Origin: an uncultured candidate division Zixibacteria bacterium
GTDB lineage: Bacteria > Zixibacteria > MSB-5A5 > UBA10806
Length of the DNA: 64,000 bases
Direction: 5' to 3'
Assembly (NCBI GenBank): GCA_963817915.1
Contig: CAWFQL010000017.1
Span: forward strand, 224,001 to 288,000
Notes under the pieces: generated by a model
Told to the model about the DNA's origin: nothing
Databases searched by the model: none
The model's input: the letters and a program-made list of their open reading frames with translations, nothing else
In this document: positions 11,614-29,553 of the stretch, piece by piece
Layout of the letters: the number at the start of each line of letters is the position of its first letter
How positions within the stretch are numbered: position 1 is the first letter of the stretch
Program-made: the position numbers and the translations under genes

Positions 11614-11631
11614 TTGTGAGAAATTTCACTA
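11614..11631. promoter_or_regulatory. Rex/CRP-type palindromic operator ahead of cytochrome operon 1
   Basis: TTGTGAGAAATTTCACTA against Rex consensus TTGTGAANNNNTTCACAA (2 mismatches). A TTGACT -35-like hexamer lies at 11558-11563. Confidence 0.6.
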
Positions 11632-11642
11632 ATGGGGCAAAA

Positions 11643-12074
11643 TTGAAAAAAATAATTCTGATCTTAATGACGATAGCAGTCGGGCTTTCGTGCAATACGG
11701 AAGTGAAGGAATTGACTATCAGGGTCCGCAGCAGGATGTACCCGGATTTCAAAGAGGACCATAAAGTAAAAATGTATGAAAAATTTCCTATATCGGATAC
11801 TGATATGGAAGGCGTTGTCGTTGAATTTATACCCGATTTCGCGATAGATACATTGGATCATAAAGTAATTTCTCGTTCCGATACCCTAAGAAATCCGGCA
11901 GTCAAAGTATTGATTATTAAGGGTGGCGAGAAAAAGGAAGAGGAGTGGGCCTTTGCTCCCGGCCTAATGGCTCACTATTCGCCCAAATCATTCATTGGAT
12001 TCGAATTAATGGATTTTAAGACTGGCAGTAAATACAAAAAACCGGCAGCCAAAAAGATTGAAACGGGAAAATAG
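11643..12074 (+). CDS. Lipoprotein with a ResB-like/DUF2155-like periplasmic domain
   Basis: TTG start, lipobox GLSC; EFIPDF...SRSDTLRNPAVKV...WAF resembles the F.PDF...S....NPA...W.F segment of ResB/DUF2155-type domains. Confidence 0.5.
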   Translation: MKKIILILMTIAVGLSCNTEVKELTIRVRSRMYPDFKEDHKVKMYEKFPISDTDMEGVVVEFIPDFAIDTLDHKVISRSDTLRNPAVKVLIIKGGEKKEEEWAFAPGLMAHYSPKSFIGFELMDFKTGSKYKKPAAKKIETGK

Positions 12075-15000
12075 ATGAGAAAAAAGTTACTATTTTGGGG
12101 ATTTATATTTCTTCTGGCATTTTCATATCAACTTTCTTTCGCTCAGAAAAAAGAATGTTATGACTGTCATAAGGATTTAAAAAAGGTATTCAGCTCCTTT
12201 AAATATTCACATGATCCAATTAAGAAAAATGATTGTTATAGCTGTCATGATTCTCACGGATTTTCCAGAGGATTGGTCCTCAAGGCCAACAACAGCACTC
12301 TTTGCTCCAAATGCCATCCTAAATTCGGCGCGGGATTTCCCGATTCTACCGCGGTAAGCATCCATGTGCCCGTGGTAAAGGGAGTCTGCTGGTCGTGTCA
12401 TGATCCTCATGGATCGAATAATCCCGGGCTTATTCGCGATGTGGATAAGGAACTGGTCTGTTTTGCCTGCCATACGGAGATGGCGGCTTTAAAAACCAAG
12501 ACTGTACAACATAAGCCATTTGCCGACAAATTCTGTTCATCCTGCCATGAAGCCCATACAGGTAATCAGCCCAAACTGCTTTTAAAAGAAACAAATCAGC
12601 TCTGTAGCGGATGCCATGATAATAACGACAAAAATTATCAGAAGAACCATTCCATAGCCGGAATCGACAAAATAAAATGCACAGATTGTCACAACCCCCA
12701 CGCTTCCGATAAGGCGGGGCTGATAAACTCAAACGCTCACCAGCCGATGGTCGAAGGAAGCTGCCAGACCTGCCATGCCAATATAGACAAGGGCGATACA
12801 ACTTTGGCGATGACGCCCAAAGAGCTTTGCACGACCTGTCATGATGATATAAACTCCAAGATCGCCATGGCAACAAGCCACCCGCCGGCGGCGGATGGAG
12901 ATTGCCTTGGCTGTCATTCAGGCCATAAAGGCAAAGAAAAAGCGCTATTAAAATCCCCGGTTAAGGATATCTGCCTGAATTGTCATAGCGACTTCGCGGA
13001 TACGGTAAAAGCGGAAGGCGCTCATACTGCGGTGAGGGCGGGTCAATGCGACGCGTGTCATGACGCCCACGGTTCTCCCAATCCGAAACTGGTAAATGAT
13101 TCTACGAATGAGCTCTGCTTAAAATGCCATACCGGACTTAAAGAAAGCATGGCCGCCGCCACCAAAAAACATCCAGCGGTCGAAGAGAAGAAATGTCTCG
13201 ATTGTCATGTGCCGCATGCATCCAAGAAGACATCGCTTCTGGCCGATGATGAACGGGTTATTTGTGCCAAATGCCATGATAATCTCGCCATTGAAACCAA
13301 GGCAAAATTCGGACATCTGCCATTCATGGCGGGGCAATGCGGCATGTGCCATGATCCCCACGGTTCTTCTCAACCGGCAATGCTTAGGGCGGAGGTTCAG
13401 AAGGTTTGTATTAGATGCCACCCCAATATCGGCAAGAGCATAACATTGCCTGTCGCCCATGCCCCGGCGAGCCAGGGCGAATGTTTGACATGCCATAAGC
13501 CGCATTCCTCGGATAACCCTGGTATGCTTCAAAAACCGCAAGGTCAACTTTGCGGCGATTGCCATGGCGATGCCAATGGAACGCTGGCAGTCAAGAACCT
13601 GCATACACCGGTCAAAGAGGGGAAATGCTCATCTTGTCATGATGTTCACGGCGGAGAACAGGCTAAATTACTTTCGGGTTCAGGAAAGAAACTGTGTTTG
13701 TCATGCCATACAAGCATGGCCGAAGATTTGAAAAAGGCGGTCGTGCACAAGCCAATCGCCGATGGAGAATGTACCACATGTCATTTGGCCCATGGATCAA
13801 ATGAGAGAAATAACCTTGTCAAGCCGGTCGCCGAGCTTTGCCAGGGATGCCACGATACCAGCATCGAAAAGATAAAAGCCGCGCATGGCGGATACGTTGT
13901 TAAAGAATCCCGTTGTACGACTTGCCATAATCCGCACGCTTCCGACCAGCCGAAATTGGTAAATAAATATCAGCATCCTCCATTCGCTGAAAAGAGCTGC
14001 GATTCTTGTCATCAAGGGTTGGGTGAAAGCGGCCAGGTGAAGCTTATTGCCGAGGGGAACCAGCTTTGCGCGCAATGTCATGATATTGTAGGGACAATCA
14101 TGGCCCAAAAGGAAATCCATTCGCCTATCAAGCTGCAAAAGGGTTGCATAAGCTGTCATGACCCTCATGCTTCGAGCAATCCCAAGATGTTAGTTGACGC
14201 CCCGCCAACGCTTTGTTACACGTGCCATAGCGAAAAGCAGGCAATGTTTACGTCAGATAAGGCGCATACGCCGGTAAAAAATGGCGATTGTTTCGCGTGT
14301 CATGAAAAGCATTCGGGTGCCAACACGAGTCTTTTGAAGACAAAGAAGACACAATTATGTTACAGTTGTCACACCGCTGAAAAGGAACGTTTTGCGAAGG
14401 AAATAGCGCATAAGCCAGTCGCGGATGGTAATTGCAATAAATGTCATGATTCGCATGGAACAGTCAATAATTTCATGCTGGTCAAGGCGCCGGATGAGCT
14501 CTGCCAAACCTGTCATATGGTTTCGACTCCGTCATTCAAGCAGACCCATTACAATTTCCCGATGGAAAAAGTAAAATGCGCTAAATGTCATGATCCTCAT
14601 TCGACACCAAAGACTTCATCGAAATTACTCTATCCTGATCAGCATTCGCCTTTTAAAGGTAGAAATTGCACTGCTTGTCACGCGGGCCCCGGCAATCTCG
14701 CTACCAAAAAGGAAGGCAAGTTATTATGCATGCAATGTCATACCAAGGCCGAGGGCCTGATGTCAAAGAAGATTGTCCACAAGGCGCTCACGGCCAAAGG
14801 CGAATGTCTTAATTGCCATTCACCGCATACAGGTTTCTCATCGAAGATATTGCTGAAGCCAGGCGGCAAGGTTTGCTATAACTGTCACGACAGACAGCTT
14901 TTTGAAGCGAAAAACAAGCATAAACCGGCAGCCGAAGATTGCAATATATGTCACGATGTCCATTCATCTGATAATGCCGGGTTGCTGAAGGTGCAGGATG

Positions 15001-15194
15001 AAATAGCTCTTTGCTCTCAATGTCATGACGCCGCCAAGACCCATCTTCATCCAATGGGGAAGGACACCAAGGATCCGAGAACCGGAAATCCTTTGGTCTG
15101 CTCAGGATGTCATTCGCCGCATTCCAGCGATTACGAAAATATGCTGTGGGCCGATAAACAAAGGGACCTCTGTGTCCGTTGCCATACGATGTAA
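12075..15194 (+). CDS. Giant periplasmic multiheme c-type cytochrome (42 CxxCH, doubled-CXXCH repeat type)
   Basis: Sec signal peptide; 42 CxxCH motifs counted by hand in repeating H.P....CxxCH.PH......L....CxxCH units. Confidence 0.95.
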   Translation: MRKKLLFWGFIFLLAFSYQLSFAQKKECYDCHKDLKKVFSSFKYSHDPIKKNDCYSCHDSHGFSRGLVLKANNSTLCSKCHPKFGAGFPDSTAVSIHVPVVKGVCWSCHDPHGSNNPGLIRDVDKELVCFACHTEMAALKTKTVQHKPFADKFCSSCHEAHTGNQPKLLLKETNQLCSGCHDNNDKNYQKNHSIAGIDKIKCTDCHNPHASDKAGLINSNAHQPMVEGSCQTCHANIDKGDTTLAMTPKELCTTCHDDINSKIAMATSHPPAADGDCLGCHSGHKGKEKALLKSPVKDICLNCHSDFADTVKAEGAHTAVRAGQCDACHDAHGSPNPKLVNDSTNELCLKCHTGLKESMAAATKKHPAVEEKKCLDCHVPHASKKTSLLADDERVICAKCHDNLAIETKAKFGHLPFMAGQCGMCHDPHGSSQPAMLRAEVQKVCIRCHPNIGKSITLPVAHAPASQGECLTCHKPHSSDNPGMLQKPQGQLCGDCHGDANGTLAVKNLHTPVKEGKCSSCHDVHGGEQAKLLSGSGKKLCLSCHTSMAEDLKKAVVHKPIADGECTTCHLAHGSNERNNLVKPVAELCQGCHDTSIEKIKAAHGGYVVKESRCTTCHNPHASDQPKLVNKYQHPPFAEKSCDSCHQGLGESGQVKLIAEGNQLCAQCHDIVGTIMAQKEIHSPIKLQKGCISCHDPHASSNPKMLVDAPPTLCYTCHSEKQAMFTSDKAHTPVKNGDCFACHEKHSGANTSLLKTKKTQLCYSCHTAEKERFAKEIAHKPVADGNCNKCHDSHGTVNNFMLVKAPDELCQTCHMVSTPSFKQTHYNFPMEKVKCAKCHDPHSTPKTSSKLLYPDQHSPFKGRNCTACHAGPGNLATKKEGKLLCMQCHTKAEGLMSKKIVHKALTAKGECLNCHSPHTGFSSKILLKPGGKVCYNCHDRQLFEAKNKHKPAAEDCNICHDVHSSDNAGLLKVQDEIALCSQCHDAAKTHLHPMGKDTKDPRTGNPLVCSGCHSPHSSDYENMLWADKQRDLCVRCHTM

Positions 15195-15197
15195 AAG

Positions 15198-15725
15198 ATG
15201 AAGAATCAGCGAAAAAAATATTTTGTGAAGGAAGGCAATCAATGGGGCCTCCTGGCCGGGGCGGTAACATTGATATTTATATTGGCTATTGTCGCCTCCG
15301 GGTTATTCTATATTATCGCCAATCGTAATCTCGAAAACGCTACTTACAGGGCTCATTTTACTGCATTGCATAATACCATGCAGCTTCTTCTGCCCTGGCT
15401 GATTCTGGTAAATCTGATTGGCCTGATTATTGTTGTTATCCTCGCGATCTTCTATACTCATAAGATCGCGGGGCCTACTTTTCATATCATGAATGATCTG
15501 AAAAAACTTGGCGAGGGCGATTTAACTACAAGGACGAATCTTCGAAAGAACGACCGTTTGCAGGAACTGGCCAAGAGCCTGAATAACGCTATCGAGGGAA
15601 TTCAGCAAAATGTCATGGAAGCTAAAAGCCACGTAACTGAATTAGAGAAAACTGCCGATAATTCTTCTCAGATAAAACAAAAAATAGATAATCTTAATAA
15701 GGCGATTAACAGGCTGAAGACCTAA
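15198..15725 (+). CDS. Small membrane protein with 2 TM helices, a HAMP domain and a short coiled coil
   Basis: Two hydrophobic segments, then HKIAGP...GEGDLT....RKNDRLQELAKSLN (HAMP); no output domain. Confidence 0.7.
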   Translation: MKNQRKKYFVKEGNQWGLLAGAVTLIFILAIVASGLFYIIANRNLENATYRAHFTALHNTMQLLLPWLILVNLIGLIIVVILAIFYTHKIAGPTFHIMNDLKKLGEGDLTTRTNLRKNDRLQELAKSLNNAIEGIQQNVMEAKSHVTELEKTADNSSQIKQKIDNLNKAINRLKT

Positions 15726-16297
15726 TGAAGTATATTGCAATCGGCGCGGCAGGCTGCATTATCTTATGCGTTTCTGTAAGGCTTTGGGGCTTCCCTCAGG
15801 AGCAAATTGTATTGCCATCTCATCCCGGCGCGGCGGCCGAATCGATTGTGGTACAGGATAGCTGCAAAATTTGTCATAATGATCCTACAAGCGCCATAAA
15901 TATTCAGGGACATCAGCAATGTTACGGCTGCCATAAATCGGTTGAGGAAAAGAACGCCAAATTATACAGGCATATAGAAATATTGAATGAAAAATTCCCT
16001 GCTATCGATTGCGCCGGATGTCATAAACTTCATAAATCGGAGGGCAAACCTCTTCTAGCCACTGATGAATTAGGGCTATGCCGGTCATGTCACTCTGAAA
16101 CTCAGGAAGGCTTGTCTCATCCAGTCGTGACATTCACCGACGAATTTGGCCGTCAGGGCGAAATATTCGGGCAGGACGCGAAGTTGATAACCTGTGCTTC
16201 CCATTGCCATGATGTGCACGGCACCGATTACCAGTATTTTTGCCGCCAGAAGCCAGGCAGGGAACTTTGTATCACCTGTCATAAGGATTATCAGTGA
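15725..16297 (+). CDS. Multiheme c-type cytochrome (5 CxxCH plus 1 CxxxCH)
   Basis: CKICH, CYGCH, CAGCH, CRSCH, CASHCH, CITCH; hydrophobic N-terminus. Confidence 0.9.
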   Translation: MKYIAIGAAGCIILCVSVRLWGFPQEQIVLPSHPGAAAESIVVQDSCKICHNDPTSAINIQGHQQCYGCHKSVEEKNAKLYRHIEILNEKFPAIDCAGCHKLHKSEGKPLLATDELGLCRSCHSETQEGLSHPVVTFTDEFGRQGEIFGQDAKLITCASHCHDVHGTDYQYFCRQKPGRELCITCHKDYQ

Positions 16298-17193
16298 GAA
16301 ATTATTTGAAAATCTTTTTAGGCGTAGTGGTATTGATTGCGTTTTACTCAGTTTTGGCAATTTCAACTTCTAACGCTCAATTTATTGAAAAGAAAATCGG
16401 CCTTCCCTGTGAAGATCGGGGCTATTTCAGTATGCCATCAGCGATTAGTTATGATCAATTGCGCAATAGATTGGCGGTATCCGATAAGGCACGCGGATTA
16501 ATTTATATATTCGACCTTACTGATATGAGCAGTGATATTATCGGTCAGAATATTCAAATCAAAGAACCGGTCGGGCTGGCATTTAATGGTAACGGCGATA
16601 TTTTCATCGCACAAAACGGTCTGCCATTTATCCTTCATTTCAAATATGATTCCGATTCCGGGGATTCAATATTTTTAGATCAGGCCGATTCAGCAAGAGC
16701 TGCTAATCCCGCAAAAATTTATATCGATTCACAGGGGCGGATGTTTATAATCGACAAAAGCGATAATTCAATTACTATTTATAATGATAAAGGCAAGTAT
16801 ATAAAAAAACTCGACTTCAAATTTAAAAATCCGGGCGGAATTTTGGTGAATTCGTCAGGCGATATTCTCATAAGCGACAAAGGCTACGATCCGATAATGA
16901 TATTCTCGAAGGACGGCTCCTTTAATAGAAGACTGACGCGGCCGGAGTCGACAACCGATCAATATAGTTTTAATGCTTCTGGATTGGCTATCGATCAACG
17001 AGGCTGGATTTATACATTGGATGTCTCAAGAAACAAATTGATGTCGTATGACCCGACTGGAATTACCAGAACATCATGGGCGCCCTCTGAGTCGCCGTTT
17101 TTCCCTGTCGATATTGCAATTGATCGAAATGACAATATCTACGTACTAGAGTCGGGCAATGGGAATATTAGAGTTCTTTCGAGGGGTTTTTGA
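16294..17193 (+). CDS. Exported NHL-repeat beta-propeller protein
   Basis: Signal peptide; repeats such as PVGLAFNGNGDIFIA, GLAIDQRGWIY, PVDIAIDRNDNIYV. Confidence 0.85.
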   Translation: MRNYLKIFLGVVVLIAFYSVLAISTSNAQFIEKKIGLPCEDRGYFSMPSAISYDQLRNRLAVSDKARGLIYIFDLTDMSSDIIGQNIQIKEPVGLAFNGNGDIFIAQNGLPFILHFKYDSDSGDSIFLDQADSARAANPAKIYIDSQGRMFIIDKSDNSITIYNDKGKYIKKLDFKFKNPGGILVNSSGDILISDKGYDPIMIFSKDGSFNRRLTRPESTTDQYSFNASGLAIDQRGWIYTLDVSRNKLMSYDPTGITRTSWAPSESPFFPVDIAIDRNDNIYVLESGNGNIRVLSRGF

Positions 17194-17194
17194 T

Positions 17195-18076
17195 ATGAAT
17201 AAAGCGTTGATATTGTTATTGGCCGCCATGATTTTGCCGGCGGCATCGCCTTATGACCTTAATCTGATTGCTACCACCAATTCTAATATCAACGGTCTCC
17301 CAATGGCAGATCCTCAGGGATTGGCGGTTAATACCAAAGGCGAGGAGTTTGTTATTGCCGATACCCGGAATGATCGGATTATAGTGGTTGATACGCTGGG
17401 CAAGGAGGTCTTTTCGTTTCCGGTCGGAGGCGAACGCCATACGCCATTCGGAGTTGTTGTCGATTCAATGGGACAGATAATTGTAAGCCCCATGGACGCA
17501 TCGGAGCTTTGGGTTTTTGATTATAACGGGCAATATTACGATACAATCATACTGCCCGATAAGTTCGCTCCCGGCAGAATGTCTATAGATAAAAATGATT
17601 ATATCTATGTAATCGATCGCTCCGGAAAAGGTATTATTGTCATTGATCATTCCGGCAGAATCATAAAAAGATTCGATTCTGCGGATAATCAGTGTAAGCC
17701 ATCAGGAGTCACTTTCGACAGAACAGGTAATGTCATAATGACATCGGCGGGCGGCGATGCCATCACTATATTTTCGCCCAGCGGAGAAATCCTTAGAAAA
17801 TTTGGGCAGCATGGAGAGCAAGTTTCGGAATTTTCCCATCCCACATCATCGCTGGTCGATAACAACGGCATGTTATGGGTGGTTGACTCTTTCAGACATC
17901 AATTAATTCTATTTGATGATAACTATAAATTTGCCGATATTATTGGAATGAAGGGTAGTAAAACAGGCGAATTTTTTTATCCAGTTGACCTGAAAATTAC
18001 TCCAGGGGGTAAATTAGGAGTGTTGGAAAAAGGAACAGGCAGATTAGATATTTTCAGGGTGAAAAATGTTAAATAA
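17195..18076 (+). CDS. Exported NHL-repeat beta-propeller protein
   Basis: Signal peptide MNKALILLLAAM; NHL repeats (PQGLAV...IADTRNDRI, GEFFYPVDL). Confidence 0.85.
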   Translation: MNKALILLLAAMILPAASPYDLNLIATTNSNINGLPMADPQGLAVNTKGEEFVIADTRNDRIIVVDTLGKEVFSFPVGGERHTPFGVVVDSMGQIIVSPMDASELWVFDYNGQYYDTIILPDKFAPGRMSIDKNDYIYVIDRSGKGIIVIDHSGRIIKRFDSADNQCKPSGVTFDRTGNVIMTSAGGDAITIFSPSGEILRKFGQHGEQVSEFSHPTSSLVDNNGMLWVVDSFRHQLILFDDNYKFADIIGMKGSKTGEFFYPVDLKITPGGKLGVLEKGTGRLDIFRVKNVK

Positions 18077-19049
18077 GAGTCTGAAATATATTTGGGTGTT
18101 TTGGGCGGTTGCTTCATTGGCTTATGCCGGAGAATATCACGCACAGGCGGATATTTTATGCAGCGATTGCCATACATCACATTATAGCGAGCATGGGCTC
18201 TTGCCTGAGCGAGCGGAGCCAGGCGGGCCATTCAGCGAAATGCTTATAGTCGGCTCAGTTGATAGATTATGTCTCTCGTGCCATGATGGCACCGACCCGT
18301 CGGCGCCGGATGTCTTGGCTCCCGTGACAATGTATAACGGCTCAGGCTCGGAATTTTCCTCAGCAGGATTTTTTACGGCGCAGGAGGGCATAGTATCGAG
18401 CGAGGCTCATGATCTTGGTTTGGATAGTCCGATTCCTTATTCGAATCCGCCAAAGACCAAGAAGCTTTCATGCGCGAGTTGTCACAATCCTCATGGGAAC
18501 GCGACCTACCGCAATCTAATTCCCGACCCCGACAGCGCTGGAATCGATGTCAATATAGTTCTCGGGGCGGACGTGTTCGAGCAGAATCATCCGGCAAATC
18601 CGCCTACCAGAAGCGCCAGTATCGATGCCTATAAATCCGGAAATATTGGATTTAGATCCAATGTCATTCAGTGGTGCGAGAAATGCCATAATGGTTTGTC
18701 AAACACCGAGCCCGGCATGCTTCCGGCTCATTTCCAGAGGCACCCGATAGGCGTCGGATTAGATGCCGCAAATTATCATGTGGATGGCGCTCACTGGACC
18801 GCCGGTACAGGCGATGGTTTTGGAACTGCCACCGGTGATGGTATGGAAGGCATACCGCGTTTGAGATTTATGGCTCCATTGGCTACTGATTATAATACAT
18901 CAAAGTCAGTCGGGAATACGAATCAGGTATTCTGTTATTCATGCCATTTCGCGCATGGGGGGCCCAATACGTCTTCAATGGTTTGGCCATTTAAAAATCA
19001 ATTATCGGCGGATTTATATTCGGGGTGTCAGCAATGCCATTACAAATAA
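18066..19049 (+). CDS. Hexaheme OmcS-like c-type cytochrome (paralog A)
   Basis: Signal peptide, then GEYH..CSDCHTSH, CLSCH, AHDL, CASCHNPHG, WCEKCH...RHP, CYSCHFAH and terminal CQQCH; same order as Geobacter OmcS. Confidence 0.8.
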   Translation: MLNKSLKYIWVFWAVASLAYAGEYHAQADILCSDCHTSHYSEHGLLPERAEPGGPFSEMLIVGSVDRLCLSCHDGTDPSAPDVLAPVTMYNGSGSEFSSAGFFTAQEGIVSSEAHDLGLDSPIPYSNPPKTKKLSCASCHNPHGNATYRNLIPDPDSAGIDVNIVLGADVFEQNHPANPPTRSASIDAYKSGNIGFRSNVIQWCEKCHNGLSNTEPGMLPAHFQRHPIGVGLDAANYHVDGAHWTAGTGDGFGTATGDGMEGIPRLRFMAPLATDYNTSKSVGNTNQVFCYSCHFAHGGPNTSSMVWPFKNQLSADLYSGCQQCHYK

Positions 19050-19060
19050 TAAAGAGATTG

Positions 19061-20614: not shown

Positions 20615-20615
20615 A

Positions 20616-22223
20616 TTGAAGCGGTTTTTCTTTATAGCGCTTTTGTTCTTCCCAATTGCCTCTCAGGCAGGTCTTAGAGGGAATTTGAATTTGAATTATT
20701 TGCAGAGCAATGCGGCTGGAGGCCTCAGCACCACTACTTCCGGCCAGATTCTCAATCTTTATATAACCGACAGAATCTTTTATTCGAATGATATGACTTT
20801 AGGGGCGTATATCTTTCGATCCAAAGCGTCGCTGAGAAGTCATGTTGATTTCCGGGTGAGATATACACTTAATATGAGCGGCTATCGATACATATTTTAT
20901 TCATCATATACACCCTACAAAATTTATGGTAATATTGAAGGCCCTTTGTCTTTCAGAGTATTTCAGGCGGCCTTAAATCTTCAGCCACGATTCCTTCCGG
21001 CCATATCATCGAGTTATTCTTCTACCAGACAATTTTCCAGCGATCATCCCCGGAAAACCAATTCCTTCAGTAATACCTGGAATATCGGTACGATGACCTC
21101 TCAGATATTCGGCAATTTTCGGGCGAATTATCAACGGCAGACATCCAGGGCGGATGTCAATAAAACTGCCAGAGATCTTCTGCAAATAGTGAATTTATCA
21201 TATGATATCAGCAAACAATGGCCGGCAAAAATAAGCTGGGCGACAAGCTACAGCTACACGGGCAGCAGAAACGATCAGGTGACGAATCTAAGAAATACTA
21301 ATAATACCCATAATGCAGCAGTCCAGGCGGGCCGTGTATTTGGAAAATGGCTGGTGCTATCCGCGGCGACCTCAGGCAGGCAGGCCGATTTCTCCCGCGA
21401 TAGTCAAAAATCGACTATCCAGGATTTTTTCGCGAGCGCGTCGAGTGTCGTTAATGTCAAAGAAAATATCTCGGTGGTATTCTTAAGGGGATATAGCATA
21501 AGTAAGACCAAGAATGACACGACAACCAGTCTGTCCAATGACTATATTAATCTTTCCGGCAATTATCGTTTTTTGATGAAGGGCGATAAGCAGGGGAATA
21601 TATCGCTTTCAAGGACAGTCTACTTGCAATCGGCATTGGGCAGATCTACGGTAGATAACGGTAATCTGGTATTTGATTTGGGTGTCTATCGCGAGACGAA
21701 CGCTACGTTGAATTTTGGAATTTCGCGCAACAGCCGGGTCGCTCTGGGAAGCGGCAGATTCCAGATTTCACGAAGTTTAACATTAACATCGCAGCCTACG
21801 CCGAAAATGTCGGTTAATTTTAATTATCAATCCTCGTATGTGGCGGATAAGATTTCACTGATAAAAGGCAATAATGATAACATGACATTGAGCCTCACTC
21901 ATGCCCCCAAAACCTATTTCAATTATACATTTACATATGACCTTACTATTATGAGAGTCAATGTGAGAAATACAATTTCATCTATATCGGTTGCCCTCAA
22001 TTTTCAACTCTCTTCCCGAATGTCGTTCCTAACGACATATACCCACAGAGATAATGGGCACACCGGTGCCACCCTGGGAAGACAAATAGATCAATCGGCT
22101 ACTGCTCGATTATCATGGAATATAGGAAGAAGAAGCACTATCACAGTAAATTACGCGATTTCAAATTTCAACACAGATCGCCAAAGCGATGAAATCGGCG
22201 GATATTATTCACTAAGTTTTTGA
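20616..22223 (+). CDS. Outer-membrane beta-barrel protein
   Basis: TTG start with signal LKRFFFIALLFFPIASQA; alternating amphipathic beta-strands; ends GYYSLSF (terminal-Phe beta signal). Confidence 0.8.
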   Translation: MKRFFFIALLFFPIASQAGLRGNLNLNYLQSNAAGGLSTTTSGQILNLYITDRIFYSNDMTLGAYIFRSKASLRSHVDFRVRYTLNMSGYRYIFYSSYTPYKIYGNIEGPLSFRVFQAALNLQPRFLPAISSSYSSTRQFSSDHPRKTNSFSNTWNIGTMTSQIFGNFRANYQRQTSRADVNKTARDLLQIVNLSYDISKQWPAKISWATSYSYTGSRNDQVTNLRNTNNTHNAAVQAGRVFGKWLVLSAATSGRQADFSRDSQKSTIQDFFASASSVVNVKENISVVFLRGYSISKTKNDTTTSLSNDYINLSGNYRFLMKGDKQGNISLSRTVYLQSALGRSTVDNGNLVFDLGVYRETNATLNFGISRNSRVALGSGRFQISRSLTLTSQPTPKMSVNFNYQSSYVADKISLIKGNNDNMTLSLTHAPKTYFNYTFTYDLTIMRVNVRNTISSISVALNFQLSSRMSFLTTYTHRDNGHTGATLGRQIDQSATARLSWNIGRRSTITVNYAISNFNTDRQSDEIGGYYSLSF

Positions 22224-22237
22224 TATTCGGAGGAACA

Positions 22238-22822
22238 ATGAAAAATAAAATCTTTATTGCCGCAATTGCAATTATGCTCGCAGCGCTTTCTTGCGCTGGT
22301 CCATCGACCTTTATCAATCAAGATACCGACTGGACATTCTACAAACGGATCGGGGTGCTTCCACTCTCGAATCTTTCGCAAGACCGATTTGCGGGCGAAA
22401 AATTCCAATCCGCGCTGATAACAGAGCTTTTCCTGACTCGAAGATTCGACGTTGTCGAGCCCGGTGAATTCAATAGCAAAGTCGCAGAAGCTCTCAAGGC
22501 CGCCAACGTGCAGCCAGGGCAGGAATTATCACTCGATCTTATCAAAGCGATCGGCCAAAAAGCCGAGGTGCAGGCAGTGATTGAAGGTGTAATCAGAGAA
22601 TATACTACTGTGCGCGTGGGGCAGTCCGAATATCCATTGATAAGCGTTAATATTCGCATGATCGATGTTCCGACCGGCACCGTGATCTGGATGACATCGT
22701 ATACCAAAAAAGGCGGTCCCAAACTGCCAATCATATCATTGGGTGAGACTCATACTCTTGGGGAATTAACTCAAAAGACCTGCCATGATATCATCGAAGA
22801 TTTTATCGTAAAAGCATTTTAG
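22238..22822 (+). CDS. CsgG/LpoB/GNA1162-like lipoprotein
   Basis: GGAGG RBS, lipobox ALSC; RIGVLPLSN...AVIEGVIREY...IRMIDVPTGTVIW pattern. Confidence 0.7.
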   Translation: MKNKIFIAAIAIMLAALSCAGPSTFINQDTDWTFYKRIGVLPLSNLSQDRFAGEKFQSALITELFLTRRFDVVEPGEFNSKVAEALKAANVQPGQELSLDLIKAIGQKAEVQAVIEGVIREYTTVRVGQSEYPLISVNIRMIDVPTGTVIWMTSYTKKGGPKLPIISLGETHTLGELTQKTCHDIIEDFIVKAF

Positions 22823-22831
22823 GGGGCCGAA

Positions 22832-23404
22832 ATGAAAAAAAGTATATTTTCCATACTCATATTTTCGGCGATATTATTCAGCTGCGGCTCCAAACCCGAT
22901 ATATATGTTCAATCGAACGGTAATATCCAATTATCGAAAACAATGGTGGTTTTGCCTTTCGCTAATTTTTCAGGAAAAGAGGATGCCGGTAAACAGGTAT
23001 ATAATGCCTTCCTGTTAGAGCTCCTAAAAAAACGACAATACAATATAGTGGAGCCTGGAGAAATTGATAATATTTTAAGAGAAGAGAGAATAAGAATTAC
23101 CGATCGTATCGACAATGCCTCGCTGGAAATTCTCAAGAATCGCCTGAACGCCAATTACGTCTTGATTGGCGCGGTCAATGAATATGATTATGTTCAAAAT
23201 GCCGCCCGCCCGATTCCATATGTGGCATTTACGATCCGTATTTTGGATGTCTCCAATGGTCGCATAGTGTGGGCTGCCGATCAAAGCCGCAGGGGAGATG
23301 ATGGCGAATTTTTGTTTGGCTGGGGGCTGGTTTCGTCGATATCAAAACTCACTACCAAAAGTGTCAAACAGGTTATTTCAAAGATTAAATTGGATTCTAA
23401 GTAA
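22832..23404 (+). CDS. CsgG/LpoB/GNA1162-like lipoprotein (paralog of the preceding gene)
   Basis: Lipobox LFSC; VVLPFANFS...YVLIGAVNEY...IRILDVSNGRIVW. Confidence 0.7.
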   Translation: MKKSIFSILIFSAILFSCGSKPDIYVQSNGNIQLSKTMVVLPFANFSGKEDAGKQVYNAFLLELLKKRQYNIVEPGEIDNILREERIRITDRIDNASLEILKNRLNANYVLIGAVNEYDYVQNAARPIPYVAFTIRILDVSNGRIVWAADQSRRGDDGEFLFGWGLVSSISKLTTKSVKQVISKIKLDSK

Positions 23405-23577: not shown

Positions 23578-23584
23578 AGTTGAG

Positions 23585-24553
23585 ATGAAAAACCAGGGGA
23601 AAAATTCAAGTTTAGCAGGGTTTATTTGTATTATGTTTACTCTTGGTTATTATCCTGTTGCGGCAGAAAACATTATTCAACCTGATATAAAATTGACCAC
23701 TATCGTAGCCAGTTATTCAGATCAGCAGCAATTTGGTCACCCCATAGGCATATTTTTTGATGCTATTAAGGATGAAATCTATCTGGCGGATAGCGAAAAT
23801 CATCAAGTGGGGATATTTGACATGAAGGGCACATCAATCTGGTCATTTAAACATTGGGTCGATGATAGCCGTTCGAATGAACGGGTTCTTGGCGATCCCC
23901 GCTCGATTGTCGTGAATTCTGCCGGCGATATTATTGTCAGTGATAACCGGGCTGATTATCTGGATATCATAGATTATCGCGGCGGCCAGCTCGAGAAAAT
24001 TGAACCTAAGGATTATGAAAATATCGATTCTTTCAGGGGCTCTTCTCTGGCCATCGATTCACTTGGAAATATCTATGTCGGAACTGTTGTGACAAAGCCG
24101 GAAATACTGAAGTTTGATAGAGATTATAAATTACTTTCTCGTTTCGGTGAAGTCGGAGACAGCCTTGGCGGCTTAAAAAATATTTCTGGCATTTGGGTGG
24201 CAGCCGACGGCAGGATATTTGTCTGTGATATTTTTTCAATTCCGGCTATCAAGATATTTTCTCCCGAAGGCAAATATCTTTCGGGCTTTGGAGATCACAT
24301 GGAACTTAAAACCGATTTCTCGTATCCCGCCGGTATTACGATAACACGCGGCGGCAGGGTATGGATTGTCGATTCTATCAGGCAGGTCGTAAAATGCCTT
24401 ACGGAAAATGGCGAATTCATCACCATGATTGGCGGATTCGGGAGTGAACCGGGTGATATGATTTATCCATCGTCGGTGGCGTCGGATGGCGACACCTTAT
24501 TGGTTGTCGCAGAGAAGAATGGGAATAGATACCAGCAATTTGTAATTAAATAG
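23585..24553 (+). CDS. Exported NHL-repeat beta-propeller protein
   Basis: Signal peptide; repeats FGHPIGIF..IYLADSENHQV, FSYPAGITI..VWIVDS, GDMIYPSSVA. Confidence 0.85.
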   Translation: MKNQGKNSSLAGFICIMFTLGYYPVAAENIIQPDIKLTTIVASYSDQQQFGHPIGIFFDAIKDEIYLADSENHQVGIFDMKGTSIWSFKHWVDDSRSNERVLGDPRSIVVNSAGDIIVSDNRADYLDIIDYRGGQLEKIEPKDYENIDSFRGSSLAIDSLGNIYVGTVVTKPEILKFDRDYKLLSRFGEVGDSLGGLKNISGIWVAADGRIFVCDIFSIPAIKIFSPEGKYLSGFGDHMELKTDFSYPAGITITRGGRVWIVDSIRQVVKCLTENGEFITMIGGFGSEPGDMIYPSSVASDGDTLLVVAEKNGNRYQQFVIK

Positions 24554-24667
24554 GTGAATAAAATGATTAAACTTAAACAATACCCAAAAGGAGGTAGCGA
24601 GAATTCAAAAGAGACTTTCATGAATGATTCGCATTTAATGAATTTTCTAACGAAAGAGGACTTAACA

Positions 24668-25717
24668 ATGAAACGTGTATTAGTTCTGATGTTGGGGGGA
24701 TTGCTGATTTTTTCATTGACGTCGTTCGCGGGCGAATATCATAGAGGATCAAGCTTGAGCTGCTATCAGTGTCATACCATGCATTTTAGCCAGAGCCACG
24801 CTTTTGGATATTCTCATGAAACATATCCTGGTTATTTGGGCGCAGCCGGCCCATATAACGGCTTGCTCAAGGGCCCGGTAAACGACTTGTGCCTTTCCTG
24901 CCATAACGGCGGCGACGTAATTGATGTTTATGGTGTTTCCGAAGTCAATCCGACAGTGAATAGAGAAGCCGGCGCCCTCAATAGACTCGGCGATGGCAAT
25001 GAAAATAATGGTCATACCCTCGACGCTCTTTCCGAAGCTCCTGGCAGCGTTCCTGCATGGTCAGATGCCAACGGTTTGAATTGCGCCGACTGCCACAACC
25101 CACATGGTTCAATCGGAAGAAATATCAATAACTATCCCGATTCAACCAAGGGTCAGTGGAGAAATCTTAAAACAAATCCGGGCAACGCCACATTGCGTTT
25201 CCTTAACTACGACAAGACAGGCGAAACGGTTTATCCGAATCCAGCCCGCGACATTCATTGGTCTGCAGCAAGTGTCCACGCGGCCGATGCGTATGAAACT
25301 GACGCGGTCAATTTCTTCGAACCGTCACAGACTGAATCCCGTTTTGGCGCATGGTGCCAGGGCTGCCATACCAATTTCCATGGCAATTCAACCGATCCTA
25401 ATATGGCCAATGGGGATGGCTGGCTTCGTCACCCAACCGCTGACGCCAATATTGGCGGTTCTCGTTTGACTCAGTTCGCAAATCACCTCTACAGACCGCA
25501 AGTCATGAGCTCGACAGGCGATTGGGGAACTCAGGGAACAGCATGGAGCAATCCTCCAGCGGATCTGACCCCGAGCTGCTTCACATGCCATAAGGGTCAC
25601 GGCAACGGCAACGCATTCGGTCTTATGTATATGACCGGTGATGCCGCGAGAAGTGAAAACGGCGACGGTACAAGAATTACCGCCACTTGCTCAGTTTGCC
25701 ATACACAGGGCAATTAA
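24668..25717 (+). CDS. Hexaheme OmcS-like nanowire-type cytochrome (paralog B)
   Basis: GAGGA RBS; signal MKRVLVLMLGGLLIFSLTSFA; GEYH..CYQCHTMH, CLSCH, GHTL, CADCHNPHG, WCQGCHTNFH..LRHP, CFTCHKGH, terminal CSVCH. Confidence 0.85.
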   Translation: MKRVLVLMLGGLLIFSLTSFAGEYHRGSSLSCYQCHTMHFSQSHAFGYSHETYPGYLGAAGPYNGLLKGPVNDLCLSCHNGGDVIDVYGVSEVNPTVNREAGALNRLGDGNENNGHTLDALSEAPGSVPAWSDANGLNCADCHNPHGSIGRNINNYPDSTKGQWRNLKTNPGNATLRFLNYDKTGETVYPNPARDIHWSAASVHAADAYETDAVNFFEPSQTESRFGAWCQGCHTNFHGNSTDPNMANGDGWLRHPTADANIGGSRLTQFANHLYRPQVMSSTGDWGTQGTAWSNPPADLTPSCFTCHKGHGNGNAFGLMYMTGDAARSENGDGTRITATCSVCHTQGN

Positions 25718-25728
25718 TTTGATTTTTC

Positions 25729-25760
25729 GGGAAGGAGTTAAATCTCCTTCCCCTTGTTTT
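25729..25760 (+). terminator. Hairpin/terminator 1 after the OmcS-like gene
   Basis: GGGAAGGAG-TTAAAT-CTCCTTCCC followed by a T-rich tail. Confidence 0.7.
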
Positions 25761-25825
25761 TGTGATGTGCTGATGTGATGTGGAATTTTTTAGATTCATT
25801 GAAGTGTGTTAATTGATGCATGATA

Positions 25826-25856
25826 AAGCCCCCATTAATTTGGGGGCTTATTTTTT
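25826..25856 (+). terminator. Intrinsic terminator 2 after the OmcS-like gene
   Basis: AAGCCCCCA-TTAATT-TGGGGGCTT followed by ATTTTTT. Confidence 0.75.
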
Positions 25857-26182
25857 GAGTATGTTGCTCGGTAATTCAAAATCTGAAATAAATATTAAAA
25901 AGAATTCTATAATAATCCTTTTCGCTGACTTAAAATTCAGCCCTCTTAATAAAATTAATTTACTGATAATTTAATAGACTAAATAAGGCATGTTTGGCAT
26001 TAAATGGGCAAATTGGCGACGCTTGTGAAAAAAAGAACTTGATTTAATGGTTTTAGTAACCGATATTTTTAGCAAGACGAATTATCCAGGTCTAAGCAAG
26101 AAAATGATTTGGCAGGATGGGTGAATGAAAAATGATGATGCGGGTGAAGCTAAGAGTTTGTGGATAGAAAGGGATGATTTGA

Positions 26183-27091
26183 ATGACATTAAATAGGCGT
26201 GATTTCTTTCGATTGGCCGCGGTTGGCTCAACGACTTTGATCGCTGGCAAGGCGATGGCCGAAGAAAAAGGAATCAATACGAATTACAGCGACGCCATGA
26301 GCGTACTGGTCGATACGACATTTTGTATCGGTTGTCGAAAATGCGAATTCGGGTGCAACCAAGCCAACAATTTACCATCGCAGCCCCTGAAAGCATTTGA
26401 TGACAAATCAGTTTTTAAGCAGCACCGAAGGCCCAGCGAATCGGCGTATACGGTCGTAAATTCAATCGACGCGCCTGAAGTGAGTCCTTCTCCTATCTAT
26501 TTAAAGGTTCAATGCATGCATTGCAATGACCCGGCGTGCGCATCGGCCTGTATTGTCGGCGCGTTGAAAAAGAATGAAAAAGGGCCTGTTGTCTACGATG
26601 CCTGGAAATGTATCGGGTGCCGCTATTGCATGGTGGCTTGTCCATTCCAGATACCGGGATATGAATACGCGAACGCGCTTACTCCTCAAGTCAGAAAATG
26701 CACATTTTGTCTTGAACGAGTTACGAAAGAGGGAAAGAAACCGGGATGTGTCGAAATCTGTCCAAACGAGGCTTTAACATTCGGCAATAGAAAAGATATT
26801 CTGGAATTGGCCCACAATAGGATAATGCAATCCCCTGGCCGCTATGTCAATCATGTCTATGGCGAGAAAGAAATCGGCGGTACAAGCTGGATGTATATAT
26901 CGGGAGTCGATTTCGAAAAAACGGAATTGCCACGACTCGAAAATGAAAATATACCGGATAAGACGGAAATTATCCAGCACGGCATATTCAAATCATTCGT
27001 GCCGCCCGTGGCATTGTATGGGCTTTTGGGATTGGTAATGTATTCGCTGAGGAAGAGGAACAGTGCGGGTGGAGGAGGCAGCCATGAGTAA
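26183..27091 (+). CDS. Tat-exported 4Fe-4S dicluster protein (NrfC/HybA/HmcB family)
   Basis: NRRDFF twin-arginine signal; CIGCRKCEFGC, CMHCNDPACASAC, CIGCRYCMVACP, KCTFC...CVEICP; C-terminal TM. Confidence 0.9.
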   Translation: MTLNRRDFFRLAAVGSTTLIAGKAMAEEKGINTNYSDAMSVLVDTTFCIGCRKCEFGCNQANNLPSQPLKAFDDKSVFKQHRRPSESAYTVVNSIDAPEVSPSPIYLKVQCMHCNDPACASACIVGALKKNEKGPVVYDAWKCIGCRYCMVACPFQIPGYEYANALTPQVRKCTFCLERVTKEGKKPGCVEICPNEALTFGNRKDILELAHNRIMQSPGRYVNHVYGEKEIGGTSWMYISGVDFEKTELPRLENENIPDKTEIIQHGIFKSFVPPVALYGLLGLVMYSLRKRNSAGGGGSHE

Positions 27092-28340
27092 TCATGAAAT
27101 AGCGATGCCAATGAAGGCAAAATTTATTACAAAAGGGACTTCCATTCTCATGGCCATTGCCGGGGCAGGAATAGCGGTATACTTATACCGTCTCCTATTC
27201 GGATTGAAATCTGTGACAAATTTAACGGATCAATATCCCTGGGGTATCTGGATTTCGATCGATGTCGCGACAGGAGTGGCTTTGGCCGCGGGCGGATTTA
27301 CATCCGCTGCCCTGGTTTACATCTTCCATAACAATAAATATCATGCCCTCGTGCGTCCCGCACTTCTGACCGCGATGCTGGGCTATACATTCGTCGTGAT
27401 TGGGCTCCTGGCGGATTTGGGCCGTTACTACAATGTCTGGCATCCTATGCTGCCATCGATGTGGCAGGGGAATTCTGTACTTTTTGAAGTCGGTATGTGT
27501 GTAATGATCTATCTGGCGGTGTTGTATATCGAATTTGTGCCGATTGCCGTCGAGCGATTCAAAGGGAAGGTCAATCTGCCGCCGCCGATTTCCGGATTCA
27601 ATAAGTTATTTGAGACATTGATCAATATCGCCGATATGACTCTTGGCAAATTCATTTTTATATTCATAATCGCCGGCGTAGTTTTGTCGTGCCTTCATCA
27701 ATCATCATTAGGCACGTTGATGCTCATTGCGCCGACCAAAATGCATCCATTGTGGTACACACCGGTTTCGCCATTGATGTTTCTGCTTTCGGCTATAGCG
27801 GTTGGGTTTCCGATGGTGATATTCGAATCGATACTGGCCTCGAGATCATTCAAACTAAAACCGGAAATGGACTTGCTTTCATCGATATCTCGATTCATTC
27901 CACCGTTATTGGGCTTATATCTCGCGGTCAAGGTTATCGATTTAACATTGCGCGGAGCATGGCCGCTTGTTTTTGAAGGTTCGGCCGAGTCAACCTTATT
28001 CATTATAGAAATTGTCGGAGGAGTGATTATCCCTTTGTTGATGCTGTCGTCCGATAAGATTAGGCATTCGATTGGTGGTCTCTTCAGCGCGGCTTTCCTG
28101 GTAGTATTGGGAGTAGCGTTAAATAGGATCAACGTTTTCCTGGTTTCTTATAAGCCTCTATACGCCGACAAGCCGTATTTCCCGACAATTTACGAAATAC
28201 TGCTAACGTCGGGATTGATCTGTTTGCTGGCGCTTGTTTATCGCGCCGTGGTGATGATTTTCCCGGTGATTTCCGCCCCTGTCGAAGGGCAGAGCAAGAC
28301 GTATCAGGTCAGGGAAAATCTTTCAATGAGAACGAAGTGA
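27084..28340 (+). CDS. NrfD/PsrC-family integral membrane quinol-interacting subunit (HybB/HmcC-like)
   Basis: TNLTDQYPWGIWI..DVATGVALAAGGF, DLGRYYN, SVLFEV, LHQSSLG motifs; multiple TM helices. Confidence 0.9.
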   Translation: MSNHEIAMPMKAKFITKGTSILMAIAGAGIAVYLYRLLFGLKSVTNLTDQYPWGIWISIDVATGVALAAGGFTSAALVYIFHNNKYHALVRPALLTAMLGYTFVVIGLLADLGRYYNVWHPMLPSMWQGNSVLFEVGMCVMIYLAVLYIEFVPIAVERFKGKVNLPPPISGFNKLFETLINIADMTLGKFIFIFIIAGVVLSCLHQSSLGTLMLIAPTKMHPLWYTPVSPLMFLLSAIAVGFPMVIFESILASRSFKLKPEMDLLSSISRFIPPLLGLYLAVKVIDLTLRGAWPLVFEGSAESTLFIIEIVGGVIIPLLMLSSDKIRHSIGGLFSAAFLVVLGVALNRINVFLVSYKPLYADKPYFPTIYEILLTSGLICLLALVYRAVVMIFPVISAPVEGQSKTYQVRENLSMRTK

Positions 28341-28351
28341 GGTGGGGGGAT

Positions 28352-29500
28352 ATGATGAATATAAATAAATTTTTGAATTTGTTCTTGGTTACCATTTTAT
28401 TTGTAATTATGTCAACTGCGGCTAATGCCAAACAGCAGGATAATGCGAAAGCCGATAGCCTCGATTGCAAGCAATGCCATTCTTGCCCGGATCCGAGCGC
28501 GGACAATGTCTGCCTGAAGGCATGCCCCAGCCTTTTTACCGCCAATAGCACGAGCGCGCATAAGCTGATTGAGGCGCCAGATTCTATGCTTTTGGATGCT
28601 CTTGTAGATCAATACGGACCGGTTCATTTCAATCATAGAATTCACGCCAGAATGTCGGAGATGTACCAGGGTTGTCCGACCTGCCATCACTTCAGCCCCG
28701 AGGGAAGGATACCGCCCTGCAATGAATGTCACGGAGGCAAGGCGAATCCAGCCAATCTTAGGCAGCCAAGCCTCAAGGGCGCTTATCATCGGCAATGTCT
28801 TACCTGCCACCGCGAATGGAGCCATGATACCAAATGTGTTATCTGCCATCTGCCGACAGATAAGAATATCCTGAAGTCCGCGACTATTGATACGACCGAT
28901 ATTATCGGCGCTAAGCATCCGCTGGTTACGGCGCCGACTCAAAAAACATACTATACTCCTTATAAAAAAGGGCCGATAGTGACATTCTTCCATAAAGAGC
29001 ATATTGATCTTTTTGGTTTACGATGTGTCGATTGCCATCAAAAGGAAAATTGCAGCTATTGCCATGACTTGGAAAAACCGACAACAGGCGCCAAGACGAT
29101 GGAGCAGGTGCATGCCATTTGCTCGGGATGTCATCAAAGCAATAAATGCGATAAATGCCATGACACCAAAGAGAAGCCCGAGTTTGTCCATGCTGTTACT
29201 GGATGGCCATTGAATAGATTCCACGCGTCATTGGATTGCCGCGCCTGCCATCCGACCGGCAAGAAGATCTCGAAGCTTAATTCGAATTGTACGTCGTGCC
29301 ACGGCGGCTGGAATCAAGAAACATTCCGCCACGCGGTCACAGGTCTGCAGCTTGATGAATCTCATTCCGGGCTTGATTGCGGCGATTGCCATGCGGAGAA
29401 AAAGTATTCAGCTAATGTCAATTGCTCGAATTGCCATGACGACGGCAGAAATGCCAAGAAGAATCCGCCCGGCAAATATGTAAAGCTTGTTGAGAAATAA
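28352..29500 (+). CDS. Cytochrome c3-type multiheme cytochrome (13 CxxCH)
   Basis: Signal peptide; c3 motifs PVHFNHRIH, LKGAYHRQCLTCH, VTFFHKEH; 13 CxxCH counted. Confidence 0.9.
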   Translation: MMNINKFLNLFLVTILFVIMSTAANAKQQDNAKADSLDCKQCHSCPDPSADNVCLKACPSLFTANSTSAHKLIEAPDSMLLDALVDQYGPVHFNHRIHARMSEMYQGCPTCHHFSPEGRIPPCNECHGGKANPANLRQPSLKGAYHRQCLTCHREWSHDTKCVICHLPTDKNILKSATIDTTDIIGAKHPLVTAPTQKTYYTPYKKGPIVTFFHKEHIDLFGLRCVDCHQKENCSYCHDLEKPTTGAKTMEQVHAICSGCHQSNKCDKCHDTKEKPEFVHAVTGWPLNRFHASLDCRACHPTGKKISKLNSNCTSCHGGWNQETFRHAVTGLQLDESHSGLDCGDCHAEKKYSANVNCSNCHDDGRNAKKNPPGKYVKLVEK

Positions 29501-29521
29501 AGGAAATTACATTTTTTGAAT

Positions 29522-29553
29522 AATGCGGTCGGATCAGGCGATCCGGCCGCATT
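29522..29553. terminator. Strong hairpin between convergent genes
   Basis: AATGCGGTCGGATC-AGGC-GATCCGGCCGCATT. Confidence 0.7.

Follow-up and report, generated by a model that had tools for sequence, protein, structure and literature searches.

In a 64,000-nucleotide stretch from an uncultured bacterium (contig CAWFQL010000017.1 of assembly GCA_963817915.1, positions 224,001 to 288,000; we call this whole stretch the window), a run of 13 co-directional genes at 11.6–25.7 kb probably encodes a compact Zixibacterial variant of the omcS-companion (osc) system of Geobacter. We will call this variant type B, and we put the probability of this reading at roughly 0.7. The osc machinery of Geobacter sulfurreducens was reportedly published in 2025 by Shen et al. 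in Cell Chem Biol (32:239), under a title that calls it widespread and ancient, and we take its genes to be GSU2504–GSU2493. An earlier reading of the window, made from the letters alone (the sequence-only reading), had proposed that this locus and the three genes behind it form one self-contained path from the quinol pool to an OmcS-like filament. Our comparisons argue for the osc likeness of the first 13 genes and against the single path.

The window's open reading frame (ORF) listing has 16 ORFs between 11616 and 29500, all on the + strand, which we will call g1 to g16. The cluster consists of g1 to g13 and is bounded by terminator-like hairpins:

11427..11451, + strand: terminator-like hairpin that ends the upstream gene and marks the start of the cluster
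11616..12074, + strand: g1, a lipoprotein of 152 amino acids (lipobox ...GLSC), with no family in scans of Pfam and NCBIfam
12075..15194, + strand: g2, a cytochrome of 1039 amino acids with 42 CXXCH motifs (21 Paired_CXXCH_1 stretches), the counterpart of the 26-heme OscI
15198..15725, + strand: g3, a membrane-anchored protein of 175 amino acids with a HAMP-like coiled coil (its NCBIfam matches are only to HAMP regions of sensor proteins)
15725..16297, + strand: g4, a cytochrome of 190 amino acids with five CXXCH motifs and one CX3CH (motif count and Pfam)
16294..17193, + strand: g5, an NHL beta-propeller with a signal peptide (NHL repeats, 60 bits in Pfam; OscD-like profile, E = 4.9e-41)
17159..18076, + strand: g6, an NHL beta-propeller (50.8 bits; OscD-like profile, E = 2.7e-39)
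18066..19049, + strand: g7, a hexaheme cytochrome of the OmcS superfamily with 327 amino acids and six CXXCH motifs, in the OscC position directly before the outer-membrane module
19025..20614, + strand: g8, a decaheme cytochrome of 529 amino acids (seven CXXCH, CX4CH, CX10CH and CX3CH) with an N-terminal membrane or signal helix
20529..22223, + strand: g9, an outer-membrane barrel, a relative of OscE without its insert (AlphaFold model and hhalign)
22220..22822, + strand: g10, a lipoprotein, the counterpart of OscF (phmmer E = 8e-24 to a 203-amino-acid lipoprotein of Geobacter sp. AOG1)
22832..23404, + strand: g11, a lipoprotein, the counterpart of OscG without the longer Geobacter tail (phmmer E = 9e-25 to a 370-amino-acid protein of Geobacter sp. 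AOG1)
23585..24553, + strand: g12, an NHL beta-propeller (64.1 bits; OscD-like profile, E = 4.8e-29)
24554..25717, + strand: g13, a hexaheme cytochrome of the OmcS superfamily with six CXXCH motifs (probable start at 24668, giving 349 amino acids)
25729-25752 and 25826-25849, + strand: two terminator-like hairpins that close the osc-like cluster just after g13

Across all 16 genes there are 79 CXXCH motifs (42 in g2, 5 in g4, 6 in g7, 7 in g8, 6 in g13, and 13 in g16) and four extended heme sites (CX3CH in g4; CX4CH, CX3CH, and CX10CH in g8). This confirms the gene and motif counts of the sequence-only reading, and the three NHL propellers that it described are g5, g6, and g12. Its division of the genes into three units is plausible, given the hairpins and the gaps of 181 nt between g11 and g12 (23404–23585) and of 466 nt between g13 and g14 (25717–26183). 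A look-up of public sequencing runs listed none for 18066–25717.

We compared the cluster with the corresponding clusters of Geobacter sp. AOG1 (L089) and of Desulfuromonadaceae UBA5613 (L037). In AOG1, the order is hexaheme, NHL protein, propeller (514 amino acids), barrel (775 amino acids), two lipoproteins (203 and 370 amino acids), prolyl isomerase (590 amino acids), 26-heme cytochrome, 16-heme cytochrome, and NHL protein. This order fits the descriptions of osc in the portions of PMC13194489 and bioRxiv 10.1101/2025.11.06.686851 that were available to us. In those portions, oscC is GSU2501, oscI is GSU2495, and oscJ is GSU2494; OscH is tied to folding, OscE, OscF, and OscG to secretion, and OscD to morphology (PMC13194489); and an eight-gene block follows the GSU2501 hexaheme, with 26 hemes in GSU2495 (bioRxiv 10.1101/2025.11.06.686851). 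The layout of L037 is the described one as well, including the prolyl isomerase, the 26-heme protein, and OscF/OscG-type lipoproteins after the barrel.

Besides the lipoproteins, the giant cytochrome g2 is strongly similar to the 26-heme protein of AOG1 (phmmer E = 6e-122; g2 also scores 447.9 bits against the DmsE family of NCBIfam), and the NHL proteins match the AOG1 cluster with E values of 1e-10 to 4e-17 (phmmer). The gene mix that the sequence-only reading had likened to osc thus proves homologous when set against a named genome. The position directly before the barrel is different: it holds the decaheme g8 instead of an OscD propeller, and the OscD-like relatives g5, g6, and g12 lie elsewhere in the cluster.

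The barrel was the hardest part to place. Pfam and NCBIfam have no family for g9, and phmmer and jackhmmer did not link it to the Geobacter-type barrel. So we considered that g9 might be unrelated to OscE. However, a profile-profile comparison (hhalign) of the g9 family (18 rows) with the OscE-like family (10 rows) gave a match of 99.5% with E = 3e-22 over 524 columns, which overturned this idea. The AlphaFold model of g9 is an all-beta barrel with 28 strands and a predicted local distance difference test (pLDDT) score of 85.5, in keeping with the outer-membrane beta-barrel of the sequence-only reading. By TM-score, the model is closest to MtrB of 6R2Q (TMq 0.51), and LptD comes next at about 0.4. 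The start of g9 is probably near residue 27 of the ORF, ahead of a predicted signal helix. The Geobacter-type barrels (for instance, 8238–10442 of L037) have a conserved central insert of about 200 residues, with no Pfam match, which the g9-type barrels lack.

The lipoproteins g10 and g11 are paralogous (25% identical). They had been called CsgG-like, and their profile matches suggest that this is true only for the N-terminal part of the CsgG profile, and not for a full-length CsgG domain. In Pfam, g10 scores 20.6 bits against CsgG, which is under the cut-off of 20.8; g11 scores 35.1 bits, across profile positions 26–103 of 210 only. LpoB and GNA1162-like profiles match the same region of both proteins, weakly.

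As judged by family profiles, g7 and g13 belong to the OmcS superfamily. They are paralogues (29% identity, E = 9e-18), and in both, a signal-like N-terminus precedes GEYH. (The start of g13 is most likely residue 39 of its ORF, at nucleotide 24668, because the matches to its homologues align from there.) A profile of the g7 family (21 proteins) matches OmcS (6EF8) with E = 1.4e-14, and a profile of the g13 family (52 proteins) matches it with E = 1.6e-21, across residues 1–338 of mature OmcS and through its fifth heme motif. We also modeled g13 with AlphaFold, using the family alignment and no hemes (pLDDT 85.8, predicted TM-score 0.83). Among solved structures, OmcS was the sole clear match to this model (Foldseek E = 2e-7, TMq 0.49). 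VIA-align matched positions 24–348 of the model to 1–407 of the OmcS chain, so that both proteins were covered (Z = 15.1, root-mean-square deviation 3.7 Å, 255 residues aligned, 26% identity). The model suggests that g13 adopts the OmcS fold. The sequence-only reading had called both hexahemes OmcS-like, which the profiles bear out for both and the modeled fold for g13 as well; it had staked itself on this fold, and in g13, where we checked, the fold agrees with that of OmcS.

The histidine three residues past the first CXXCH motif (CHTMH in OmcS and g13; CHTSH in g7) aligns with His16 of OmcS. We presume that His16 is the inter-subunit ligand of OmcS. The equivalent histidine is found in 21 of 21 rows of the g7 family and in at least 90% of the 52 rows of the g13 family, so the ligand position appears to be kept, although conservation does not prove the same use. 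According to the portion of PMC9473688 that we consulted, a heme of OmcS is ligated by a histidine from the neighboring subunit. A homodimer prediction for mature g13 scored 0.01, as compared to a mark of 0.42, which is evidence neither way.

To place the hexahemes, we made a quick tree by maximum likelihood from 79 rows of the OmcS family, leaving out OmcS itself. The rows are ORFs of 280–559 amino acids with 5–8 CXXCH motifs from loci L001–L045 and from seven later loci, with additions from Geobacter sp. AOG1 (L089), three genes of this genome, and the solo gene of L073; all others were excluded. The tree has a g7 clade (16 rows, support 99), a g13 clade (23 rows, support 99), and a clade with support 100 that contains a third copy from this genome. 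This third OmcS-family gene lies outside the cluster, on contig 3 (112101–113288, - strand), and encodes 395 amino acids with seven CXXCH motifs. In L002 (the closest full relative of the cluster) and in L096, its orthologue adjoins the g13 orthologue directly downstream, which suggests that the last gene of the cluster was moved or split off in this genome.

How widespread is this arrangement? We scanned reference genomes with the g7 profile and obtained 79 loci. When we used cytochromes as queries, jackhmmer drifted to all multiheme proteins (g2, g4, g7, g8, and g13 each match in 79 of 79 loci), so we set those counts aside and relied on non-cytochrome profiles, first-pass phmmer, and curated alignments. 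A g9-type barrel (type B) is present in 20 of the 79 loci, and an OscE-like, Geobacter-type barrel (type A) in 13. A prolyl isomerase is found in 8 of the 13 type A loci versus none of the 20 type B loci. Type B occurs in Zixibacteria, Ignavibacteria, Gemmatimonadota, GN15, Eisenbacteria, Nitrospirota, Anaeromyxobacter, and metagenome-assembled genomes labeled "Deltaproteobacteria." As for the small genes, relatives of g1 adjoin the 42-heme gene in 11 of the 79 loci, and g3, which is made up of the membrane-anchored coiled coil alone, with no output domain, and lies between the 42-heme and pentaheme genes, has relatives in 8.

Because these loci were picked through the hexaheme, we added a sample from the barrel side: 16 barrels from 16 genomes of the window's phylum, chosen among strong matches so as to spread over families, with 9 kb on each side. 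An OmcS-family gene accompanies the barrel in 15 of the 16 loci, both lipoproteins in 15, a g8-like cytochrome in all 16, and the 42-heme protein in 12; none has a prolyl isomerase. The sequence-only reading would have been undermined by a barrel and lipoproteins that are not conserved together with the hexahemes, and we found that they are co-conserved. The gene directly before the barrel also separates the types. Among 35 type B barrel ORFs, it encodes a g8-family cytochrome in 28 cases and a 12-heme protein in 3 (the remaining 4 cases are split ORFs or artefacts of the fetched stretches), while among 12 type A barrels, it encodes an OscD-like propeller in 8 cases and a g8-like cytochrome in 1. 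Gene content and order in these loci indicate that the cluster belongs to a distinct, recurring variant of osc.

In two loci from Gram-positive bacteria, L026 (Firmicutes HGW-14) and L028 (Thermincola ferriacetica), 42-heme, NHL, and OmcS-like genes are present but the barrel and the lipoproteins are missing, in keeping with an outer-membrane role for the missing parts.

Several observations weigh against our proposal, or against parts of it. OscH, which acts as the folding chaperone in the published model, is missing from the cluster: Pfam gave no rotamase domain in the 16 genes or their flanks, and an OscH profile found nothing in the cluster and only distant, generic prolyl isomerases elsewhere in the genome. 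The Osc letters in L089 and L037 were assigned by gene order and third-party descriptions, without the sequences of G. sulfurreducens PCA. Of 201 genomes sampled from the window's phylum, just 45 have a match to the barrel profile (in 22 of the 108 genera), and of nine other genomes in the window's family, only one does; the barrel is an accessory trait there. As for the hexahemes, when g7 and g13 were each compared as single sequences with solved structures, the matches were at the level of motifs only, and OmcS was not among them. In the tree, the hexahemes of Geobacter sp. AOG1 and of Desulfuromonadaceae form a separate clade (10 rows, support 99), and neither g7 nor g13 is orthologous to it. 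In Geobacter, OmcS alone is known to form a wire, according to the part of bioRxiv 10.1101/2025.11.06.686851 available to us, and a table in PMC13194489, also available in part, lists OscC (the positional counterpart of g7) as periplasmic. Because of the separate clades, the sole known polymer, and the periplasmic listing of OscC, we only infer that g7 or g13 might leave the cell, and we would lean slightly against their forming a filament.

The fourth heme site of g8 (C171...C182-H183, at 19535–19573) has the unusual spacing CX10CH, which is also found in L002. In more distant relatives, this position aligns with an ordinary CXXCH, so we describe g8 as a decaheme cytochrome, with putative heme binding through the CX10CH site. 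We considered that g8 might be a further member of the OmcS family, and we rejected this, as a g8 profile gave only heme-motif matches to the g13 family. Searches of solved structures with the g8 sequence and with its profile also gave only heme-motif matches, with no specific relative, and an Atlas look-up returned only generic multiheme clusters.

The tight pairing of g8 with the barrel suggests another explanation, in which the cluster encodes a porin-cytochrome conduit and no filament: g8 would sit inside g9 as MtrA does in MtrB, the lipoproteins would stabilize the pair, and the hexahemes would be monomeric, either as terminal or as periplasmic cytochromes. A multiheme gene lies directly before 31 of the 35 type B barrel ORFs, mostly overlapping the barrel gene or within 16 nt of it; MtrB is the best structural match to the g9 model; and OscC is listed as periplasmic. 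One of the barrel-first loci (L101) also fits a conduit. There, a g9-type barrel (8807–10672, - strand) adjoins a cytochrome of 814 amino acids with 11 hemes, with no OmcS-family gene or OscF/OscG-type lipoproteins within 9 kb; the two may form a porin-cytochrome pair that stands by itself and derives from the same family of barrels. However, the likeness of g8 to MtrA of 6R2Q is at the level of motifs (30 bits), and g8 scores 24.8 bits against the DmsE family, where the cut-off is 192.2. Furthermore, the barrel is homologous to OscE, which has been proposed to be part of a secretion channel (in the portion of PMC13194489 available to us), and OmcS-family genes accompany the barrel in 15 of the 16 barrel-first loci. 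A conduit would also be compatible with a filament on top of it. A conduit with no filament is possible, and we consider it unlikely.

We propose the following role for the type B cluster. The periplasmic multiheme cytochromes g2 and g4 would carry electrons to the outer membrane. There, the decaheme g8, encoded by a gene that is coupled to that of the barrel, would form a unit with the barrel itself (g9) and the two lipoproteins (g10 and g11), and this unit would pass electrons, hexaheme subunits, or both to the cell surface. The OmcS-family cytochromes (g13 and perhaps g7) would be the terminal, extracellular end, possibly as OmcS-like polymers, and the NHL propellers would act as helpers. 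The barrel could serve as an export channel, as proposed for OscEFG, could sheathe g8 in the way that MtrB sheathes MtrA, or could do both. We favor some role as a sheath, because of the strict pairing of cytochrome and barrel and because L101 has only that pair.

A more specific version is that g8 is threaded through the OscE-like, 28-strand barrel and forms the wired base of an OmcS-type filament, so that one machine would export the subunits, anchor them, and also charge the filament with electrons from the 42-heme cytochrome. This is speculative, and we think it rather unlikely. If it were true, it would explain how nanowires are anchored and fed across the outer membrane outside of Geobacter. 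A 2025 review calls the anchoring and feeding of cytochrome nanowires across the outer membrane speculative (PMC12307469, available to us in part).

Electrons might also flow the other way, with Fe(II), minerals, or partner cells as donors to the periplasm, instead of out to metals. Chains of multiheme cytochromes are reversible, and nothing in the sequence sets the direction. But the Geobacter homologue is said, going by the title of the 2025 article and by third-party descriptions, to serve electron export, and we consider uptake to be quite improbable.

Behind the hairpins that close the cluster lie the last three genes and their own terminator:

26183..27091, + strand: g14, an iron-sulfur protein with a Tat signal (RRDFF motif at the N-terminus; 4Fe-4S dicluster), related to HmcB and HybA
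27063..28340, + strand: g15, a membrane subunit of the NrfD family (PF03916, 68.1 bits), related to HybB and HmcC
28337..29500, + strand: g16, a c3-type cytochrome of 387 amino acids with 13 CXXCH motifs (motif count and Pfam), resembling the C-terminal part of HmcA
29522..29553, + strand: terminator-like hairpin with 14 pairs, just after g16, which ends the g14–g16 unit

The first two are the NrfC/NrfD pair of the sequence-only reading. In NCBIfam, g14 scores 340 bits against HmcB (cut-off 420) and 259.9 against HybA (cut-off 263); g15 scores 350.8 against the HybB-type family (cut-off 450) and 293.2 against HmcC (cut-off 550); and g16 scores 48.1 against HmcA (cut-off 400). All of these are below the curated equivalog cut-offs for Hmc and HybAB.

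If g14–g16 belonged to the same system, then a single, co-evolved locus would lead from the quinol pool through the NrfCD-type module and the 13-heme cytochrome to the 42-heme wire, the outer-membrane complex, and an OmcS-like nanowire. All the parts are co-directional within 18 kb, the makeup of g14 (Tat signal), g15 (NrfD family), and g16 (13-heme, c3-type) makes exchange between quinones and periplasmic cytochromes possible, and another Zixibacteria locus (L003) has relatives of g14 and g15 nearby. However, two terminator-like hairpins and the 466-nt gap separate g13 from g14, and the adjacency is not conserved. Relatives of g14–g16 are absent within 10 kb in L002 and from the fetched stretch of 15 of the 16 barrel-first loci (the sixteenth, L103, has only a weak match to g14, at 73 bits), and relatives of g14 or g15 are found in only 4 of the 79 loci. 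Because g14–g16 are a separate unit behind hairpins and their adjacency is not conserved, the claim of one locus with the whole path is not supported, and we consider it very improbable. Instead, g14–g16 look like a separate, quinone-linked Hmc/HybAB-like module that is a chance neighbor of the type B cluster here. Such a module could feed or drain the periplasmic pool of electrons, and as judged by its family matches, a link to quinones is plausible.

The host genome (3.33 Mb, 93.9% complete, 2.7% contamination; the window is on contig 17) is from Zixibacteria and not from Desulfobacterota, as judged by ribosomal protein L2, which is encoded on the same contig as the cluster. Among the best 120 relatives of this protein, six have an organism name: five Zixibacteria or Zixiibacteriota, and one "bacterium." The named closest relatives of g7 are also from Zixibacteria (61–62% identity). 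This agrees with the host suggested by the sequence-only reading, which had allowed that the contig might be from Desulfobacterota.

Two other regions of the genome look like broken genes. On contig 3, at 91826–98896, seven overlapping ORFs on the + strand have 20, 8, 14, 15, 14, 9, and 10 CXXCH motifs, a total of 90; they look like the pieces of one or two giant multiheme cytochromes that are broken by frameshifts or assembly errors. Upstream of the cluster, at 6454–11395, are two large ORFs on the + strand (1063 and 601 amino acids) that overlap by 56 nt. These may be a single gene split by a frameshift, because both ORFs have CarboxypepD_reg domains at the junction.

Zixibacteria are uncultured bacteria that are common in both sediments and subsurface settings. 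An osc-type system offers a concrete route, open to testing, by which they could carry out extracellular electron transfer. The recurring replacement of OscD by a multiheme cytochrome before the barrel, together with the loss of the chaperone, implies two osc-like architectures, and the compact type may be a simpler system for studying how OmcS-type cytochromes cross the outer membrane and are wired through it. The sequence-only reading overstated the novelty of the locus, given that the osc machinery has reportedly been published as widespread. The explicit division into two architectures may be new, as may the swap of cytochrome for propeller with chaperone loss. Leaving aside what the 2025 article on osc covers, our literature search found no description of an osc-type cluster in Zixibacteria, only general statements about iron cycling; Zixibacteria are repeatedly named as iron cyclers (in the portions available to us of PMC8478452, PMC7005843, and PMC9769843).

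Of the known systems, the osc cluster of Geobacter is the most similar. Both have an OmcS-superfamily hexaheme ahead of the outer-membrane module, homologous barrels, two homologous lipoproteins, a giant paired-CXXCH cytochrome, and several NHL-type propellers. In the Zixibacteria cluster, though, the place directly before the barrel is taken by a decaheme cytochrome and not by the OscD-like propeller, the prolyl isomerase OscH is missing, the barrel has no counterpart of the insert (about 200 residues), the giant cytochrome carries 42 hemes instead of 26, a second hexaheme (g13) follows the downstream NHL gene, g1 and g3 are extra, and g7 and g13 are in clades apart from the Geobacter hexahemes. 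With OmcS itself (PDB 6EF8, 6NEF), the hexahemes share six CXXCH motifs, profile-level homology over nearly the whole chain, the conserved histidine at the ligand position, and, in the model of g13, the fold (Z = 15.1). They differ in length (about 305 and 325 residues when mature, versus 407 in OmcS), in sequence (26% identity in the structural alignment), and in their placement in the tree.

MtrCAB of Shewanella (PDB 6R2Q) resembles the type B module in the coupling of a decaheme gene with the gene of a large barrel, and MtrB gives g9 its best TM-score (0.51). MtrB has 26 strands, versus 28 predicted for g9, so the barrels are of similar size. In contrast, at the level of sequence families, g8 does not match MtrA/DmsE and g9 does not match MtrB, and two lipoproteins and OmcS-type cytochromes are found where MtrC would be. 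Finally, g14–g16 resemble HmcABC/NhcABC of sulfate reducers and HybA/HybB of hydrogenase 2, with an exported iron-sulfur subunit, an NrfD-type membrane subunit, and a multiheme c3-type cytochrome. They differ in that g16 has 13 hemes versus 16 in HmcA (as described in NCBIfam), in the gene order (B-C-A), and in having no HmcDEF or hydrogenase genes beside them.

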